DNA from: a phage
Sequence record: OZ346151.1
Strand: one strand, 5' to 3'
Length of the DNA: 64,000 bases
The translations under genes were made by a program, and so were the position numbers. The notes under the pieces were generated by a model. The model was not told where the DNA came from. It was given only the letters and a program-made list of their open reading frames with translations, and did not search any database. This document shows, in pieces, positions 1 through 60,626 of this stretch. Numbering within the stretch: the stretch's first letter is position 1; each line of letters begins with the position of its first letter.

Positions 1-1
1 T

Positions 2-1465
2 AACTGTGGATGTGCAAACGCAGTAGATACTTTTGCAAACAATGAGAAATTTATCCGTAGCTACGGAACAGTGGTCCTTGCAATGGACAACGATGCGGCT
101 AACGAGGTAGAGAAGCAAAAACACGTTATCAAAGGTGTTGAAGCCACACATAATATTGCAGCATTTTTGATGGCTGACAACGTTTACCACGTGGAATATC
201 CTGGCGAGGTAAACGACCCTGATGGTGTAAAAGATATCCGTGACATGCTGAAGGCTAAAAAGCTGGAAGATATTGTAAACATGTTCCGGCATCCTGTTAA
301 GTATGTGCCTGATGCTGTGTCGGATTTAGAAGACTTCTCTATCGAATCTTTGCGGAAAAAGACTTCCAACGGGGTAGATATCAGCGCAGAGTTTCCAAAA
401 CTGCAAAAAATGCTAAAAGGCTTGCACAAAGGGACACTCGTAATGCTTACAGGTCCATCAGGAGGTGGTAAAACAACTGTAGCCAAAAAACTGGAACACT
501 GTATTGCAAGATACCTAATGGACCCGACATGTCCAAAGGCCGATGACTACGAAGAGGATGATCGTCTATGCATGATTCATCTTGAGGAGGACCCAGAGGA
601 AGCAATTAACTCCTTGTATGCAAACCAGTTAGGGTTTGATGTTAAAGAGTTTGTTGAAGATCCTAGCCAGTTTTTAACTGATCAAGAACATGCAGAGATT
701 CACCAATCATGGGCAAAAGCTGGAAAAATCAAAGTGTTCAAACATTTCGGGTCTATTCCAGTGGACGAGTTGATTACCAAGCTTAAGCAAATGGTTTGCC
801 TGTACCATTGTCGCTATATTGTGCTGGATCACCTGTCTATGGTAATTTCAGGGCTTAATGTTAAAGATGAGCGAAAAGAACTGGACATGGCTATGACTCA
901 GCTGGCTGCGTTTTGTAAGCAGTTTAACGTGTTTATCTTGGTGATCGCTCACCTCAAACGTACAGAGATTGTGCCTCCTAAGGACAAGGATGGTAACCCA
1001 TTACCTTTCTGGTATCCTGTGCGAAAAGAGAATTTGCGAGGATCGGCTGGGCTTGAACAGTTGAGTTGGGTAGTCATAGGTGTCGAGGCCGAAGAAATGG
1101 TGGATCGTTCTCGTGGGCGTGTCCGTCTGGTAGGTCTTAAAAACCGTCCAGCAAAAACTTTAGGTATTGCTGACACTTTAGTTATGGACCCACATACAGG
1201 TAAGTTCCATGATGCCAGTAATTGGTACTGGGACAAAGAAATGCAGATGTTTACAGACGGAGAAGGTGGGGAGGTTGTTTGGAGACCTCAGGCCATGTTT
1301 GAGGACCAAGAGCATGCAGTTGTAGAAACACCTATGGGCAAGGTTGTAGCCGATAAGGTTGTAACTCCTACTATTAAGCCTGTTGACACGCAGGAAGACC
1401 TTCAGTACGATGATCCATCCTCTGATCCGGTCCCCGGTTTTGAGGATGATGAAACACCTTTTTAA
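2..1465 (+). CDS. primase-helicase (T7 gp4-like), 5'-partial
   Basis: Frame open from window edge (no upstream stop); Toprim-like LAMDND motif; Walker A GPSGGGKTT; DnaB-type helicase region; acidic C-terminal tail ending FEDDETPF. Confidence 0.85.
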   Translation, partial: NCGCANAVDTFANNEKFIRSYGTVVLAMDNDAANEVEKQKHVIKGVEATHNIAAFLMADNVYHVEYPGEVNDPDGVKDIRDMLKAKKLEDIVNMFRHPVKYVPDAVSDLEDFSIESLRKKTSNGVDISAEFPKLQKMLKGLHKGTLVMLTGPSGGGKTTVAKKLEHCIARYLMDPTCPKADDYEEDDRLCMIHLEEDPEEAINSLYANQLGFDVKEFVEDPSQFLTDQEHAEIHQSWAKAGKIKVFKHFGSIPVDELITKLKQMVCLYHCRYIVLDHLSMVISGLNVKDERKELDMAMTQLAAFCKQFNVFILVIAHLKRTEIVPPKDKDGNPLPFWYPVRKENLRGSAGLEQLSWVVIGVEAEEMVDRSRGRVRLVGLKNRPAKTLGIADTLVMDPHTGKFHDASNWYWDKEMQMFTDGEGGEVVWRPQAMFEDQEHAVVETPMGKVVADKVVTPTIKPVDTQEDLQYDDPSSDPVPGFEDDETPF

Positions 1466-1523
1466 TGTTTAACAAAGAGTGGGAGGGGTAGTACAACCGC
1501 CTCCCCTTTAAGGAGAACTGTAT

Positions 1524-3947
1524 ATGAGCATGTGGTCGTTCGACTTTGAGTCATCCGGTTTGCTGGAAGACCCAGATCTTTATTATCACTGCGGCCTGTT
1601 TAAAGAGCTGAATAAGAACCGTTTTATGCTGTTCCTTCCTCTAAATGACCGCACACACTACTCCGAGGAGGATATAGAAAAGGCTAAGAACTTCATTCTG
1701 GCAAAGAAAACTCTTTATAAAGATTTTGAAGTTCGCATAGCAGATTTTTCAGAGTTGGAAGGTTGGCTTACAGGAAATTCTGACTGGTCACCAACAGCTT
1801 TGAACTGCCATAACTGCTACAGTTATGACTTTATGCTGATGGAAAGATTATCTGGTATTCATTTTGATATGTTCCGTGATCCTAAGTGTATGGGGACTAT
1901 CAACGATCACCAGGTTAACCTGTTTGATACGTTGGCGATGAGCCGAATCTTGTGGCCTGATCGCCCTTTACCAAAAGGTTGTCCGGACTCTGTATTCAAC
2001 CCGGTTACTAAGAAAATGCAGCCTGTTGGTCCTCACGGCCTTATGGCATGGGGCTACGCCCTTGGTAACCAGAAAGTTCAAATTGATGACTGGCGCGATC
2101 TTCCGTTATGGAAGTATGTGGATCGTGTATTTGAGGACGTTATCATCCAGGAGCTGCTCTGGAAAGAGCTGGTAGCGGAATCAAAAGGTGTATTCTACGG
2201 CAAATCTGACATGCAGAACTTTATGTACGATCCTGCCAAAGAGAAGCCGAAAGGGTTCAAGAAGATCACCTGGAAGAACGCATTACGTCGAGGCATGTTG
2301 CAGCACTTCCTGATGGAGCTGCAGGCCCGTCAGGGTGTATACTTCGACATAGATGGGGCTATTGCTTTACGTGACCGCTGCGATGCGTGGATGAAAGAGA
2401 TCGCTGATCGTGTTGAACCACAACTGCCTTTAAAAGAGCTGTCAATGTCTCAGCGGCCCAAGTTCCCTGAAAAGCCGTTTAACCAAGATGGGACAATCTC
2501 TAATAATGGTTGGAAATGGTTAAAAGATAAGCTTGGCTATCCTGTGGACATGAGTGCTTTAGAGTTCAAAGCCCCACCTAAGCGAGCATTTACCTCTACA
2601 GGAGATGTCAGTAAGATGGGGATAAAATGGTGTGAAGAGATGGGCTGCAAAGACCACGATAAGATGGCTGATTTCTTGAGAGGTTATATTAAGGGCACCT
2701 CCACACCACAACCTTTACCTAAAGAGCTGATGGATCAGGCAATAAGCGATCTGCAACAGAAGCGAATGCCTGACTGCAAGATACCTATGAAAATCAGCAA
2801 TCAGGACGACATTAAGCGATACCTGATCAGTGCTGGTTGGCTTCCGACAATGTGGAGAACTAAGGATGTAACTAAGGACAGCAAGAAGAAAGCTCTACCT
2901 GATGCAGATGTTGATGCACGAGTATATGCATACATGGACGAGCTTTTAGAGTCAGAGTATTGTGACCTAATTATCAACTTCTGGAACAAAACTGATGCTA
3001 AGTTTCAGACAACAGTGCACAAGTTCCGAAGCTTTCCTAACTCCGAAAGGATTAAAAAGGAAGTGTTCGGGAAAATACGCAGAAAAGCCAGGGCACTTAT
3101 TACTTCTCCGCAACTGAAAGATACGTTTGGACACCTATGTCCGAATCTTGAAAAATTGAACGGAGAGATGGCTAAAGATATCGTCTTGTGGTTATCATTG
3201 CGAAACCGCAGATCGGTCCTTGATCCAATCAAGGAGGATAAGGTTGATACTGGTCTTCTTAATCACCCACGTTTGAAGATTGACCATAAGCTTCCTGCTA
3301 AAAGCTCTGGATTAACAAACACTTCCCGACAGAAACACAGTATTTGTGCAAACATGCCTAAACCATCTCCTAAAGTGGTTATGGGTAAAGAGATGCGTAG
3401 CTTGTGGGGTGTTCCTCCTGGATACTTTGAGATCGGTATTGACGGGTCCAACTTAGAGCAGCTTATCGGGGCTTGGGGTGCCTTTGAGTTCGACAACGGC
3501 TTGTACTATGATGTTGTAAGTAACGGGGACGCACACCAAAACAATGCTGAGGCATATACAAAAGTAGCAGGCAGAGAGGTGTCTCGTAACGACGGTAAAC
3601 CTATCACGTATGGGGTTATGTACGGGGCACAAAAAGATAAAGTTGCAGATATGCTGGATATCTCCCCAGAGTTGGGGCAAAGGGTGATCGATGCACTTTG
3701 GGATGCCAACCCAGGTCTTAAGGGGCGCAAAGAGGATCTGGAGAAATTCTGGGAAGCAACAGGTAAGAAGTTTATCTACTCTTTTGATGGTCATGCTATC
3801 TGGACCCGATCTAAACACTCTTTACTTAATGCATACCAACAAAATGGCGGCGCATCGTTGTGTGACTTAGTTGGGATACTCATGCACCATCAAATGGTGA
3901 AGCGTGGGTGGTACGATGAAGGTGTTCGTCGTATTATCTATTACCAT
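1524..3947 (+). CDS. DNA polymerase, family A (T7 gp5-like), exon 1
   Basis: SD AAGGAG before ATG 1524; exo motif FDFESSG; pol motif A IGIDGSNLEQ; motif B KPITYGVMYG; ORF stops right after ...IIYYH, i.e. before motif C. Confidence 0.85.
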
Positions 3948-10401: not shown

Positions 10402-10827
10402 ATGATCTATGAAATGCCAAAACTGATTCGTGACGATGCCCAAAACGCCCACACCTTTATCATGGGCAAGCGCATGGATATTATTTGTCATAAAGATTTC
10501 TGGGAAGGTAGTTACTTCACAGAATATTTTGGTAAACTGGATAATGGTCTGCTGATCCAGTTCTACACCGATGCGGAAAACAATATCTGCTGGGAGTTCG
10601 AAACTGAAGATATCCATAAACTTTTCACCTTCCTAGGTATTAAGGTTGAGGCCAAGTTTGAAGAAGGCGAGTGCGACGATTGTGGATTCTACGAGGTAAC
10701 AGATTTCTATCTCCCAAGTGGTGAGAACCTTTACTATGAAAGCCACTTCGGCAACTCAAATATGCCACAAGGTTGGGATGAGTTTTTTGAAATTGCGGAA
10801 GAGGAGCTGACATACCGTGATTATTGA
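10402..10827 (+). CDS. hypothetical protein
   Basis: SD GGAGAA before ATG. Confidence 0.5.
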   Translation: MIYEMPKLIRDDAQNAHTFIMGKRMDIICHKDFWEGSYFTEYFGKLDNGLLIQFYTDAENNICWEFETEDIHKLFTFLGIKVEAKFEEGECDDCGFYEVTDFYLPSGENLYYESHFGNSNMPQGWDEFFEIAEEELTYRDY

Positions 10828-11275
10828 TACTGTAGCGGGAGATTTAATCTCCCTTTTTAAGAGCGGTGCTGGTCACCTGATCCACGGTTGTAACTGCTTT
10901 CATACAATGGGTGCAGGCATAGCGAAAGATATTGCCCGTGAGTTCCCTCAAGCACTGGCAGCCGACAAAGAGACTGCCTATGGTAATCTGGACAAGCTGG
11001 GTATGTTTTCTTGTTGGGAGCATTTTGCCAAGAACAGGGTCGTATATGGAATCAACCTGTATACCCAGTTCTACCCAGGGCCCAATGCTGAATACTTCTC
11101 AATAATGAAAGGTTTTGAGCGAGTCAACGAGGTATTCAAAGGTGTGTCATTGCCGTTCTACATTCCTAAAATTGGATGCGGTATTGGCGGTCTAAAGTGG
11201 GAACATGTAGAAGATGTAATTAATCTTGCAACCACAGATATTGATGTGGTTGTAGTAGAGTACAAAAAGTGTTGA
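10817..11275 (+). CDS. macrodomain protein (TARG1/DarG-like ADP-ribose processing fold)
   Basis: GTG start with SD GAGGAG; motifs HGCNCFHTMGAGIAKDIA and IPKIGCGIGG match macrodomain signature. Confidence 0.6.
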   Translation: MIIDTVAGDLISLFKSGAGHLIHGCNCFHTMGAGIAKDIAREFPQALAADKETAYGNLDKLGMFSCWEHFAKNRVVYGINLYTQFYPGPNAEYFSIMKGFERVNEVFKGVSLPFYIPKIGCGIGGLKWEHVEDVINLATTDIDVVVVEYKKC

Positions 11276-11526: not shown

Positions 11527-11721
11527 ATGAGAAACAAGAAAGAGCTTTACTCTGGTGAGTGGATCAACGATCAACAGGTGGGAGAGGTAACCTGCTTCCG
11601 ATGTTTTACCAGGTACAATCTTAAAACTGCACCAAAAAGTGTTCCAAAGACTGACGGTTATTACATAAAAGAACCTCATTGCCCAAAATGTAAATGCCGA
11701 TTATACTGGAGTAACCTGTAA
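11527..11721 (+). CDS. small zinc-ribbon protein
   Basis: SD GGGAGAG before ATG; CFRC...CPKCKC cysteine pairs. Confidence 0.5.
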   Translation: MRNKKELYSGEWINDQQVGEVTCFRCFTRYNLKTAPKSVPKTDGYYIKEPHCPKCKCRLYWSNL

Positions 11722-11725
11722 AAGA

Positions 11726-11753
11726 TTGACATCTGAAAACTGCAGTGTATAAT
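11726..11753 (+). promoter_or_regulatory. sigma70 consensus promoter
   Basis: TTGACA, 16-bp spacer, TATAAT. Confidence 0.55.
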
Positions 11754-57846: not shown

Positions 57847-58560
57847 TTAAATATACTCTGTTACATCCTTGAAGCTCGAAGGCTTCATAATCTTACCTTT
57901 ACTGTCAAGGAATATAATAACTTTATTACCGTTGTAGAACTCCTCTTTAGCAACGAAACCTTCGTAGCGACCACCAAAACGACGCTCAAGATCTTCAATC
58001 TCTAACTCTATGAGCAATTCAGTAGACATATCTGCACTGGCACCGTGAGAATATCGTAGATGGTTGATCCGTGCAAACTTGCTGTCATTAGATTTGAGAA
58101 CCTTCCGCATCATCCCACACACATCGCCGCGAAGCTGGAACAGCAAAGCTGTTGACAACTCCGCTAAGCGGTAAGCTGACGCTCTTTGCTTGGATGTGTT
58201 TTTCGCAGCGATCAGTGTATCATAGAACTCACCGATCTTGAACTTAAGACCTCGTGGATTATCAAACAGGTTTGACCACTTTTCGTGATTATCATTAACA
58301 AGATAAGCGGCATAACTTGTGACAACGTGAAGATCGCAGGCCTCTTTTAGCAGGTGATCTCCACCATCACCTTTCTCCAGCTCTTCCAAAACCTCATTGA
58401 ACTCTTCCTCAATGAAGCTAAGCTGTAATTCGAATGGTGTGTATGATTTTTTCACTTTAGCTGCCACACGGTTCCAGTTTTCCACCCAGTTGGCAGACCA
58501 AAGGTAGTTTTCAGGCTGAGACAGTTTTTCCAGGTTGTCGATCAGTTTAGTATTCAGCAT
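57847..58560 (-). CDS. hypothetical protein, possible MazG-like nucleotide pyrophosphohydrolase
   Basis: FIEEEFNEVLEELEKGD...EACD weakly resembles MazG EExxE...E..D motif. Confidence 0.35.
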   Translation of the reverse strand: MLNTKLIDNLEKLSQPENYLWSANWVENWNRVAAKVKKSYTPFELQLSFIEEEFNEVLEELEKGDGGDHLLKEACDLHVVTSYAAYLVNDNHEKWSNLFDNPRGLKFKIGEFYDTLIAAKNTSKQRASAYRLAELSTALLFQLRGDVCGMMRKVLKSNDSKFARINHLRYSHGASADMSTELLIELEIEDLERRFGGRYEGFVAKEEFYNGNKVIIFLDSKGKIMKPSSFKDVTEYI

Positions 58561-58573
58561 TAAAGGTCTCCTT

Positions 58574-59335
58574 TTAAAGTTCCATAAAGTTTTCTACAGT
58601 TTCAATAAATGCTTTATCAGAGAAAGCGTCAACAGCACCGTTAAACCATACAGGGATCCCGCGATCCTCATATTGATAAAGGTCGCTACGTGAAATGCCA
58701 CTCCCATCTGCACTCTGCGAGTCATACTTGTTTACAATCAGCAGTTTTGTGCCTTTACAAGTAGCAGGAAACAATTCCCAGTTAAAATTAATAACTGTGT
58801 TAGAACAACCTACTAGGATCACCATATCATTGCTTGTGAGAGATGTCAACAGGTCATACATGTCTGTATACTTAGGAGCAACCTCACCGAAGAACACTAC
58901 ATTGGGCTTAACCCAGGTATACTTGCCTGTATCTACCTCCGTGTATCCGATATTTTTAATTACATCATTACCTTCAGCATCTTCGTAGGTGATTTCAGGC
59001 AAATACCCGTGGACATGTAAAATATCTTCATGTTTTACACCAGCACGCTCCAGCAAATCATCTACATTGGTGGTAAGGTTGATCACACGACCAGACCAGC
59101 GGGAATACCACTCAGCGATCCGAAGATGTGCAAGGTTAGGATCAACACTGCCCAGAGCTACACGACGTGCATTGTAAAAGTCATGCACCTTATAGTAGTT
59201 CTTGGCAAAGGTGTGGATGTTGCACACCTCATCGATGCTGAAATTCTCCCACATTGCAGTGCTACCAGATCGGAAAGTGGGAATACCAGATTCAGCGCTC
59301 AAACCAGCACCGGAGATAATAATCAGTCGTCGCAT
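58574..59335 (-). CDS. Sir2-family (sirtuin-like) NAD-dependent protein, no zinc-ribbon module
   Basis: SGAGLSAESGIPTFRS, TTNVDDLLERAG and HG motifs; no CxxC pairs. Confidence 0.7.
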   Translation of the reverse strand: MRRLIIISGAGLSAESGIPTFRSGSTAMWENFSIDEVCNIHTFAKNYYKVHDFYNARRVALGSVDPNLAHLRIAEWYSRWSGRVINLTTNVDDLLERAGVKHEDILHVHGYLPEITYEDAEGNDVIKNIGYTEVDTGKYTWVKPNVVFFGEVAPKYTDMYDLLTSLTSNDMVILVGCSNTVINFNWELFPATCKGTKLLIVNKYDSQSADGSGISRSDLYQYEDRGIPVWFNGAVDAFSDKAFIETVENFMEL

Positions 59336-59343
59336 AAGTGTCC

Positions 59344-59694
59344 TCAGTAGATGTTTTGTTTAATCTCTATTCCAAACTTCTTGAATGAGTCAGCAGCAAG
59401 CATAAATTTACGAGCTGCCGATGGATTAGAAGTATGCACGAAAATAATCACGTTGTCAATAAGTGGTGGCTTTCCGAATACAAGTTTCTCCTCTAGCGCA
59501 GAGAAGCAGTCGTACCCTTCAAGCACTTCACCTAGATCATTGTCAAAATACCACTCAGATACGCGTCTGTAGAGCTTTCTCTTATCATTAAGAAAATCCA
59601 TAAACTCAGAAGAATTCTTTAGCCACAGAGCGTCTGGGAGTCCATAATCTGACGGATCTCTAAAATCATCAAGCCACACAATCCACTTCTTCAT
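59344..59694 (-). CDS. hypothetical protein
   Basis: Strand-consistent ORF. Confidence 0.5.
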   Translation of the reverse strand: MKKWIVWLDDFRDPSDYGLPDALWLKNSSEFMDFLNDKRKLYRRVSEWYFDNDLGEVLEGYDCFSALEEKLVFGKPPLIDNVIIFVHTSNPSAARKFMLAADSFKKFGIEIKQNIY

Positions 59695-60626
59695 TGCATA
59701 TAGTCCTCGTTGTGGAAATAGTAGTCCAGTATCTCACGACGCTCCTGCTCTAATAAGCAATTCCACACATCTTCTGTATAGTTGCTACGAATAAATTTTA
59801 CCATACCGTAAAACTCTTCGTCAACACGTTTAAAGATATCATCATCCCAAATCTTCCAAGCTTTACCCCTCATTACTGCCTTCCGTGCCAGATAGTATGG
59901 AGACTTGATCTTCAGCTGCAGATCATAAGGGTAGTAAGGCTTACGAATCATATACCCTTCACCTCTTGTTTCTGCAGCTAATTCTTTTGCATAGCTGAAC
60001 GGAATTTCACGCACAGTGTTAGGACGTTTTGCACCAAGGTATTTGGCAATCCCATCTAAAGCTGCTTCTGGTAGCATTATTCCAGAATCATTATATCTGC
60101 AACCTATCAAATATGCGCCATGGTCTTCTTGAACAATATGCGGATCTGAAGGGTGACAAATTTCAAACATGAATGTCATGTTTTCATTGCCCATAACCTT
60201 CTTGATAAGATCTAAATTACCACATTGCTCTTGGATGGTTTCCTTTGCAAGGTTACAATATGGAGAATCAAGAGACCCGGTTGTTGAGAACAATAGGTCA
60301 CCTTTATGAGATGATACCACACCAAGGAATCCGTTCTTTTTCTCTACCGCAGTCACAAGCTTATTGTCAGGCAGGTTGGTGGAGTTTTCTCCCAAGTTAA
60401 ACACTTTTGTGAAGGGCCATGCCACAACATTTCCTTCATTACCTACAACAATGCCTCGGCACTCCAGTAAACGAGGGGACAAATGCCATAAATTGTTGTA
60501 AAATACTTTTCTAGCATATTTATAGATCTTTAACCCGAGATCTGGGTAATACCTACTGGTTACAAGACCTTTGTCAACTAGGTCGTCTGCATTAAAATAC
60601 TTCATTATATGTTCCTCATTTGTCAT
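59691..60626 (-). CDS. RNA ligase (T4 Rnl1-like)
   Basis: LLECRGIVVG resembles T4 Rnl1 ALECRGIMF; motif I EKKNGF (KxDG/KxNG); divergent from pnk. Confidence 0.7.
   Translation of the reverse strand: MTNEEHIMKYFNADDLVDKGLVTSRYYPDLGLKIYKYARKVFYNNLWHLSPRLLECRGIVVGNEGNVVAWPFTKVFNLGENSTNLPDNKLVTAVEKKNGFLGVVSSHKGDLLFSTTGSLDSPYCNLAKETIQEQCGNLDLIKKVMGNENMTFMFEICHPSDPHIVQEDHGAYLIGCRYNDSGIMLPEAALDGIAKYLGAKRPNTVREIPFSYAKELAAETRGEGYMIRKPYYPYDLQLKIKSPYYLARKAVMRGKAWKIWDDDIFKRVDEEFYGMVKFIRSNYTEDVWNCLLEQERREILDYYFHNEDYMQ

Follow-up and report, generated by a model that had tools for sequence, protein, structure and literature searches.

The natural reference for the locus described here is the gene tk.4 of bacteriophage T4. 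According to a preprint of November 2025 (bioRxiv 10.1101/2025.11.20.689424), tk.4 gave the only significant T4 hit in a HIDEN-SEQ transposon screen on DarTG2-expressing cells, while a clean tk.4 knockout sensitised T4 to DarTG2, an effect specific to DarTG2. The gene was renamed adfM (“anti-DarT factor Macrodomain”) in the same text, where the enzymatic step of T4 AdfM is deduced from its similarity to DarG. On the biochemical side, gp104 of PhiKZ (the AdfM of a chimallivirus) hydrolyses DarT2-modified DNA (PMC13309987). Finally, the macrodomain protein SCO6735 removes from DNA the thymidine-linked ADP-ribose added by DarT, through a mechanism proposed to be water-mediated, in which a Gln positions the distal ribose: the substitutions Q85A and Q85E abolish the hydrolysis of dT-ADP-ribose and N27S nearly does so, the catalytically dead Q85A variant still inhibits DarT in vitro, and both SCO6735 and TARG1 act on ADP-ribosylated proteins too (PMC9411070).

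In the stretch of 64,000 nt analysed here (hereafter the window), which comes from a Vequintavirus (rV5-like E. coli myovirus), a preliminary description had singled out one open reading frame as coding for a TARG1/DarG-like macrodomain protein. This frame is real and its translation contains both of the motifs that were quoted, HGCNCFHTMGAGIAKDIA (residues 23–40) and IPKIGCGIGG (residues 116–125). Proteins of this kind are known, and a macrodomain annotation already exists for this gene: the 4-kb region around it shows 99.7% identity to Escherichia phage JLBYU08 (OK272482), in which the same gene, JLBYU08_122, is labelled “putative macro domain-containing protein”, and other records label it “phosphatase”, “Poa1p-like” or, historically, “A1pp phosphatase”. 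The GTG start is sound because more than 50 homologues, T4 Tk.4 among them, align from residue 1. The annotation of phage Murica has a ribosome-binding site at the position corresponding to ours (Table 1). The GTG overlaps the stop of an upstream ORF of 141 aa by 11 nt, and this arrangement may couple the two genes translationally. With a GC content of 0.438 (vs. 0.428 for the window), the macrodomain gene is typical of its surroundings, and the window holds no second macrodomain gene or paralogue.

Upstream of the gene are found those for the DNA primase, the DNA polymerase and SSB, while small ORFs of the same strand lie around it, the latter having only Vequintavirus-specific PHROG matches, with functions unassigned and Pfam domains either absent or unrelated. 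The upstream ORF conforms to this picture, being without a Pfam or NCBIfam match. We considered whether this overlapping ORF and the macrodomain gene form a two-gene module and rejected the idea, the neighbours matching only Vequintavirus-specific PHROGs and no homologue of T4 vs being present. Among the neighbours examined, there is neither a darT toxin gene nor one for an ADP-ribosyltransferase, and a search of the window with T4 30.3, which encodes the NADAR protein AdfN, as query (tblastn) returned no homologue that could be a second anti-DarT gene. Sigma-70-like promoter matches in the gene block number 20, for 10.8 expected, which, together with the position of the gene, would fit early or middle expression by the host polymerase. 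Two genes downstream, a small protein carries a phage zinc-binding domain, and its gene is followed by a perfect match to the sigma-70 consensus promoter (Table 1).

Table 1. Positions of the features discussed in the text, in coordinates of the window.
Feature	Position (nt)	Strand	Description or basis
Upstream ORF	10402-10827	+	141 aa; Vequintavirus-specific PHROG 8157
Ribosome-binding site GAGGAG	10801-10806	+	Read from the sequence; 10 nt before the GTG, within the end of the upstream ORF
Macrodomain CDS	10817-11275	+	152 aa, GTG start, end coordinate including the stop codon; Vequintavirus counterpart of T4 Tk.4/AdfM
Hairpin GGGAGAT-TTA-ATCTCCC, then TTTTT	10837-10853	+	7 bp; terminator scan; codons 7-13
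Motif HGCNCFHTMGAGIA	10883-10924	+	Residues 23-36, first ADP-ribose-binding loop; conservation and alignment
Codon of N26	10892-10894	+	Aligned with SCO6735 N27 and DarG N22
Motif NLYTQ	11054-11068	+	Residues 80-84; N80, Y82 and Q84 invariant
Codon of Q84	11066-11068	+	Column of the catalytic Lys of DarG and TARG1
Motif PKIGCGIGG	11165-11191	+	Residues 117-125, second, diphosphate-binding glycine loop; P117, G120 and G122 invariant
Small protein with zinc-binding domain	11527-11721	+	PF23903 (E 8e-23)
Promoter match TTGACA-16-TATAAT	11726-11753		Perfect sigma-70 consensus
MazG-like nucleotide pyrophosphohydrolase	57847-58560	-	PHROG 671
Sir2 family protein	58574-59335	-	PF02146 (E 6.9e-28)
cREC cyclic-phosphate-processing receiver domain protein	59344-59694	-	PF20274
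T4 Rnl1-type RNA ligase	59691-60626	-	PF09511

The product of the gene is a macrodomain, and this is far from a chance match. It reaches 25.9 bits (E 1e-5) with the Macro profile of Pfam (PF01661), whose gathering cut-off is 22, and matches PHROG 335 (E = 1.4e-59; profile positions 54–205), and its AlphaFold model, computed from a 56-sequence alignment, has a mean pLDDT of 93.3 and a pTM of 0.89. When this model was compared with the PDB using Foldseek, the leading matches (TM about 0.7–0.76) were TARG1, Poa1p, the DarG macrodomains of T. aquaticus, M. tuberculosis and T. africanus, BT1257 and SCO6735, and each of the best 50 listed is either a macrodomain or a designed protein with a fold like it. 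The three-layer alpha/beta architecture is present, as are the glycine-rich loops that bind ADP-ribose, MGAGIA and IGCGIGG, which are conserved in the family. A profile of the family searched against the PDB recovered the same TARG1/DarG/Poa1p/BT1257/SCO6735 set (E 1.6e-14 to 1.4e-10), and in both fold and profile searches the alphavirus and coronavirus macrodomains (nsP3-type) ranked behind it. The closest relatives by profile and by structure thus belong to the TARG1/DarG (ALC1-like) class of macrodomains, so that both the fold and the TARG1/DarG likeness put forward in the preliminary description are borne out by the structure and profile searches, the nearest solved relatives being those of the TARG1/DarG group. 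In the PADLOC defence library, DarG is the sole match (profile positions 9–143 of 329), as it is in NCBIfam (NF048014, positions 4–144 of 338, with 47.3 bits for a cut-off of 250), and the C-terminal DarT-binding domain of full-length DarG is missing from the 152-aa protein. Since both matches are confined to the macrodomain part, the protein is a stand-alone homologue of the enzymatic domain of DarG.

Thirteen residues (G24, N26, C27, M31, G34, A36, D50, N80, Y82, Q84, P117, G120 and G122) are invariant in 57 members of the family. Among them, Q84 occupies the column of DarG K80, TARG1 K84, PhiKZ AdfM K78 and SCO6735 Q85, and G124 that of TARG1 D125 (alignment), hence the catalytic Lys of DarG and TARG1 and the catalytic Asp of TARG1 are absent. 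This is a feature of the family: among 80 further viral loci, N-x-Y-T-Q is present in 72 of the 74 that are readable and a Lys in none, and Gln is also found in this column in BT1257, as in SCO6735. Taken to the letter, the absence of catalytic residues that the preliminary description had named as grounds for its refutation is found here. This does not refute activity, because SCO6735, with the same type of site, whose Gln and positioning Asn are essential, is an active thymidine-ADP-ribose DNA hydrolase. Judging from these alignments, the T4-type AdfM family probably uses a Gln-type, lysine-independent active site, as does SCO6735, rather than the lysine of DarG, which would make Q84 and N26, and not a Lys, the residues worth mutating.

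T4 Tk.4 (NP_049723) aligns with the protein over residues 1–150, i.e., its full length, with 39% identity and 65% positives (E 1e-43); its record is labelled “contains A1pp phosphatase motif”, and it too matches PHROG 335, at profile positions 54–205. Outside Vequintavirus, the closest homologue is found in the T4-like Krischvirus UPWr_E1 (PP418985, 2501–2956; 69% identity), where it stands exactly at the tk.4 position, in the order regB ... macrodomain gene ... tk. This 69%-identical copy at a tk.4 locus may tie the Vequintavirus gene to tk.4; the Vequintavirus locus itself shares no flanking genes with T4. The higher identity to the Krischvirus copy than to T4 Tk.4 (69% vs. 39%) suggests that this putative counter-defence gene was exchanged horizontally between Vequintavirinae and some Straboviridae. 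We also looked to the cellular context for an independent link to DarT and abandoned this line, since neither of the two copies checked in cellular records has a darT neighbour: one, from Pelagimonas, stands alone amid genes of housekeeping type, and the contig that carries the other looks phage-like.

The relationship with tk.4 extends to the 5' end of the gene, where a hairpin begins about 10 nt past the stop of the upstream ORF and falls within the first 40 nt of the macrodomain gene (Table 1). Taken alone, it does not differ significantly from dinucleotide shuffles (z −1.6), and the annotation of phage Murica calls it a “terminator”. A hairpin occurs at the same codons in T4 tk.4, in Krischvirus and in many T4-like loci, with compensatory changes (GGA/TCC vs. 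GGC/GCC; AAA..TTG vs. AAG..CTG) and, in these loci, a z of about −3 to −4 relative to synonymous recodings, although these lineages are related, which makes the evidence from conservation only moderate; in more distant homologues, the hairpin is absent. Its role may be that of an attenuator or a terminator, or it may affect mRNA stability. In a RIL-seq study (bioRxiv 10.64898/2026.06.19.733364), the host sRNA ArcZ paired with the tk.4 mRNA of phage T2, a gene mislabelled there as “putative thymidine kinase”. This pairing may be relevant to RNA-level regulation of the Tk.4 gene family and adds nothing on the function of the protein.

On the strength of what we observed (fold, family, conserved active site and relationship with T4 Tk.4), the protein is probably a stand-alone, “orphan antitoxin-like” ADP-ribosyl hydrolase of the Tk.4/AdfM family that counters DarTG2. 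In a host carrying DarTG2, infection would free DarT2, which would ADP-ribosylate thymidines in single-stranded phage DNA and thereby block the replication of the phage. The macrodomain protein, made during infection, would grip the ADP-ribose with its glycine loops (MGAGIA and IGCGIGG) and hydrolyse the glycosidic bond between ribose and thymine, thus restoring DNA that can be replicated. The chemistry would be the lysine-independent one of SCO6735, with N26 holding Q84 and Q84 positioning the distal ribose for water-mediated hydrolysis, while a direct inhibition of DarT, as exerted by SCO6735 in vitro, may add to the protection. The suggestion of the preliminary description that a phage copy could reverse DarT-type modification receives support from the genetics of T4 Tk.4 on DarTG2 and from the biochemistry of PhiKZ AdfM (PMC13309987), and we infer that the Vequintavirus protein shares the activity and the role of its T4, SCO6735 and PhiKZ counterparts. 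In the literature, we found no phenotype data for Vequintavirinae on DarTG2; the HIDEN-SEQ study included the Vequintavirus Bas54, for which its accessible part reports no DarTG2 test.

The preliminary description had further brought in a Sir2-like protein encoded elsewhere in the window, as a sign of a host interaction centred on NAD and ADP-ribose. The Sir2 gene exists (Table 1) and belongs to a four-gene cluster (57847–60626, minus strand), about 47 kb from the macrodomain gene and on the opposite strand, that matches the sirtuin-centred neighbourhood of “phage V5” of Iyer et al. 2022 (PMC9503650). For the V5 cluster, these authors predicted a KptA-like RNA repair generating ADP-ribose cyclic phosphate, a computational prediction only as of their 2022 survey, and they pointed out that no Macro gene is linked to it (PMC9503650). 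Because it is part of a separate RNA-repair cluster, at such a distance, on the other strand and without Macro coupling, the Sir2 gene says little in favour of a common NAD/ADP-ribose programme, and we discarded a Sir2 partnership as direct support for the function of the macrodomain protein. If JLBYU08 were simply collinear with the window outward from the 99.7%-identical region, the Sir2 cluster would lie at about 1800–2600 of that genome, but its record, compared over 1–3000, lists genes for a glycoside hydrolase and a DNA ligase there. Insertions, deletions or a rearrangement therefore set the two genomes apart somewhere between these regions.

These same facts bear on an alternative that we regard as unlikely, namely that the protein is an enzyme of small-molecule ADP-ribose metabolites, either a Poa1p-like ADP-ribose-1''-phosphate phosphatase or an O-acetyl-ADP-ribose deacetylase, which might serve the sirtuin/cREC/RNA-ligase repair of the phage. 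At face value, the historic labels “A1pp phosphatase” and “phosphatase” point in this direction, Poa1p is among the best matches by both sequence and fold, and the H-x-C-N-C motif is shared with it, H23 and T30 aligning with H23 and S30 of Poa1p (for which mutant structures are deposited). Moreover, the phage Sir2 stands beside cREC, an Rnl1-type ligase and MazG, with ADP-ribose cyclic phosphate as predicted product (PMC9503650), and a macrodomain acting downstream is chemically plausible. However, such a partnership would have to bridge the separation just described, no sirtuin was seen in the portions of the T4 record examined, yet T4 keeps Tk.4, and the phenotype of the T4 tk.4 knockout is specific to DarTG2 (bioRxiv 10.1101/2025.11.20.689424). 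Even a phosphatase or deacetylase activity would not alone define the biological role, given that macrodomains of the TARG1/DarG group are often promiscuous in vitro.

Another possibility, which we hold to be quite improbable, is that the protein removes ADP-ribose attached to proteins or RNA, and not to DNA, so as to act on other defences based on ADP-ribosyltransferases or on modifications made by phage or host. The activity of TARG1 and SCO6735 on ADP-ribosylated proteins (PMC9411070) and the wide range of ADP-ribose conjugates handled by Macro domains (PMC9503650) agree with this reading, as does the spread of the family, homologues being present in 2,742 of 50,697 phage records (about 5%), in phages of many host genera, which might be broader than expected if DarT2 were the sole target. 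Nevertheless, both phage members tested so far map to DarTG2, DarG is the sole match in the defence library and in NCBIfam, and the neighbours examined include no ADP-ribosyltransferase gene. Equally doubtful is a joint reading, according to which the Tk.4/AdfM family would be a lysine-independent, broad-substrate eraser of ADP-ribose, active beyond DarT2 and, in V5-like phages, also engaged in cleaning up the ADP-ribose phosphate of the sirtuin/cREC/RNA-ligase cluster, its dosage being set by the hairpin; if true, counter-defence against DarT and RNA repair would be connected. Finally, a non-catalytic role, as a binder (sponge) of ADP-ribose or of a signal molecule or as an inhibitor of DarT acting stoichiometrically, is very unlikely: the protein does lack the usual catalytic Lys and Asp, dead SCO6735 Q85A does still inhibit DarT in vitro (PMC9411070) and the phage anti-DarT factors AdfA and AdfB act by binding the toxin, but the DarT-binding domain of DarG is missing here, and the family invariably keeps the two residues, Gln and Asn, that SCO6735 needs for catalysis, which disfavours such a role.

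Returning to the preferred reading, a Tk.4/AdfM-family hydrolase directed against DarTG2, the protein can be placed among the known macrodomains as follows. Human TARG1/OARD1 (PDB 4J5R) and yeast Poa1p (PDB 6LFQ) are top Foldseek matches with similar loop motifs; the catalytic pair K84/D125 of TARG1 corresponds to Q84/G124 in the phage protein, whereas Poa1p, a small-molecule phosphatase, has H23/S30 in the columns where the phage protein has H23 and T30 (alignment). The macrodomain of DarG2 (M. tuberculosis 5M3I, T. aquaticus 5M31/5M3E, T. africanus 7OMU) shares the fold (TM about 0.75), is the best single-sequence match in the PDB and has an Asn, N22, whose equivalent is kept here. In contrast, its K80 is replaced by Q84, and the phage protein has neither the DarT-binding C-terminal domain nor an adjacent darT. 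SCO6735 (PDB 5E3B) and BT1257 (PDB 2FG1) are stand-alone proteins without an adjacent darT as well, and they agree with the phage protein in having Gln in the catalytic column, the Asn that positions it and the conserved Gly loop (for SCO6735, Q84 = Q85, N26 = N27 and G120/G122 = G126/G128). Nonetheless, identity to them is about 24–26%, N-x-Y-T-Q of the phage family stands against their N-M-I-G-Q-H, the mobile loop after the Gln is about 5 residues longer in SCO6735 than in the phage family, and the DNA-contacting lysines of SCO6735, K34 and K89, are not conserved in the phage family (A33 standing in the K34 column).

Among phage proteins, T4 Tk.4/AdfM resembles the Vequintavirus protein in length, in its single-domain layout, in the motifs HGCNCFHTMG, NLYTQ and P-x-IG-x-GIG and in the 5' hairpin, while it differs in belonging to Tevenvirinae, not Vequintavirinae, and in its neighbours, no vs or tk genes being found here. 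If the proposed function is correct, the macrodomain anti-DarT factor AdfM would extend from T-even and nucleus-forming jumbo phages to Vequintavirinae, which are of interest for phage therapy owing to their broad host range, and the gene would predict that this phage withstands DarTG2-carrying E. coli. PhiKZ gp104/AdfM is likewise a phage-encoded stand-alone macrodomain and falls in the broad PHROG 335, but its identity to the Vequintavirus protein is 22%, it is imported into the phage nucleus (PMC13309987), a structure that Vequintaviruses do not have, and its active site is of the Lys type (K78, with N23), like that of DarG. With the T4-type AdfM being of the Gln type and the PhiKZ type of the Lys type, it appears that phages recruited both active sites against DarT2.
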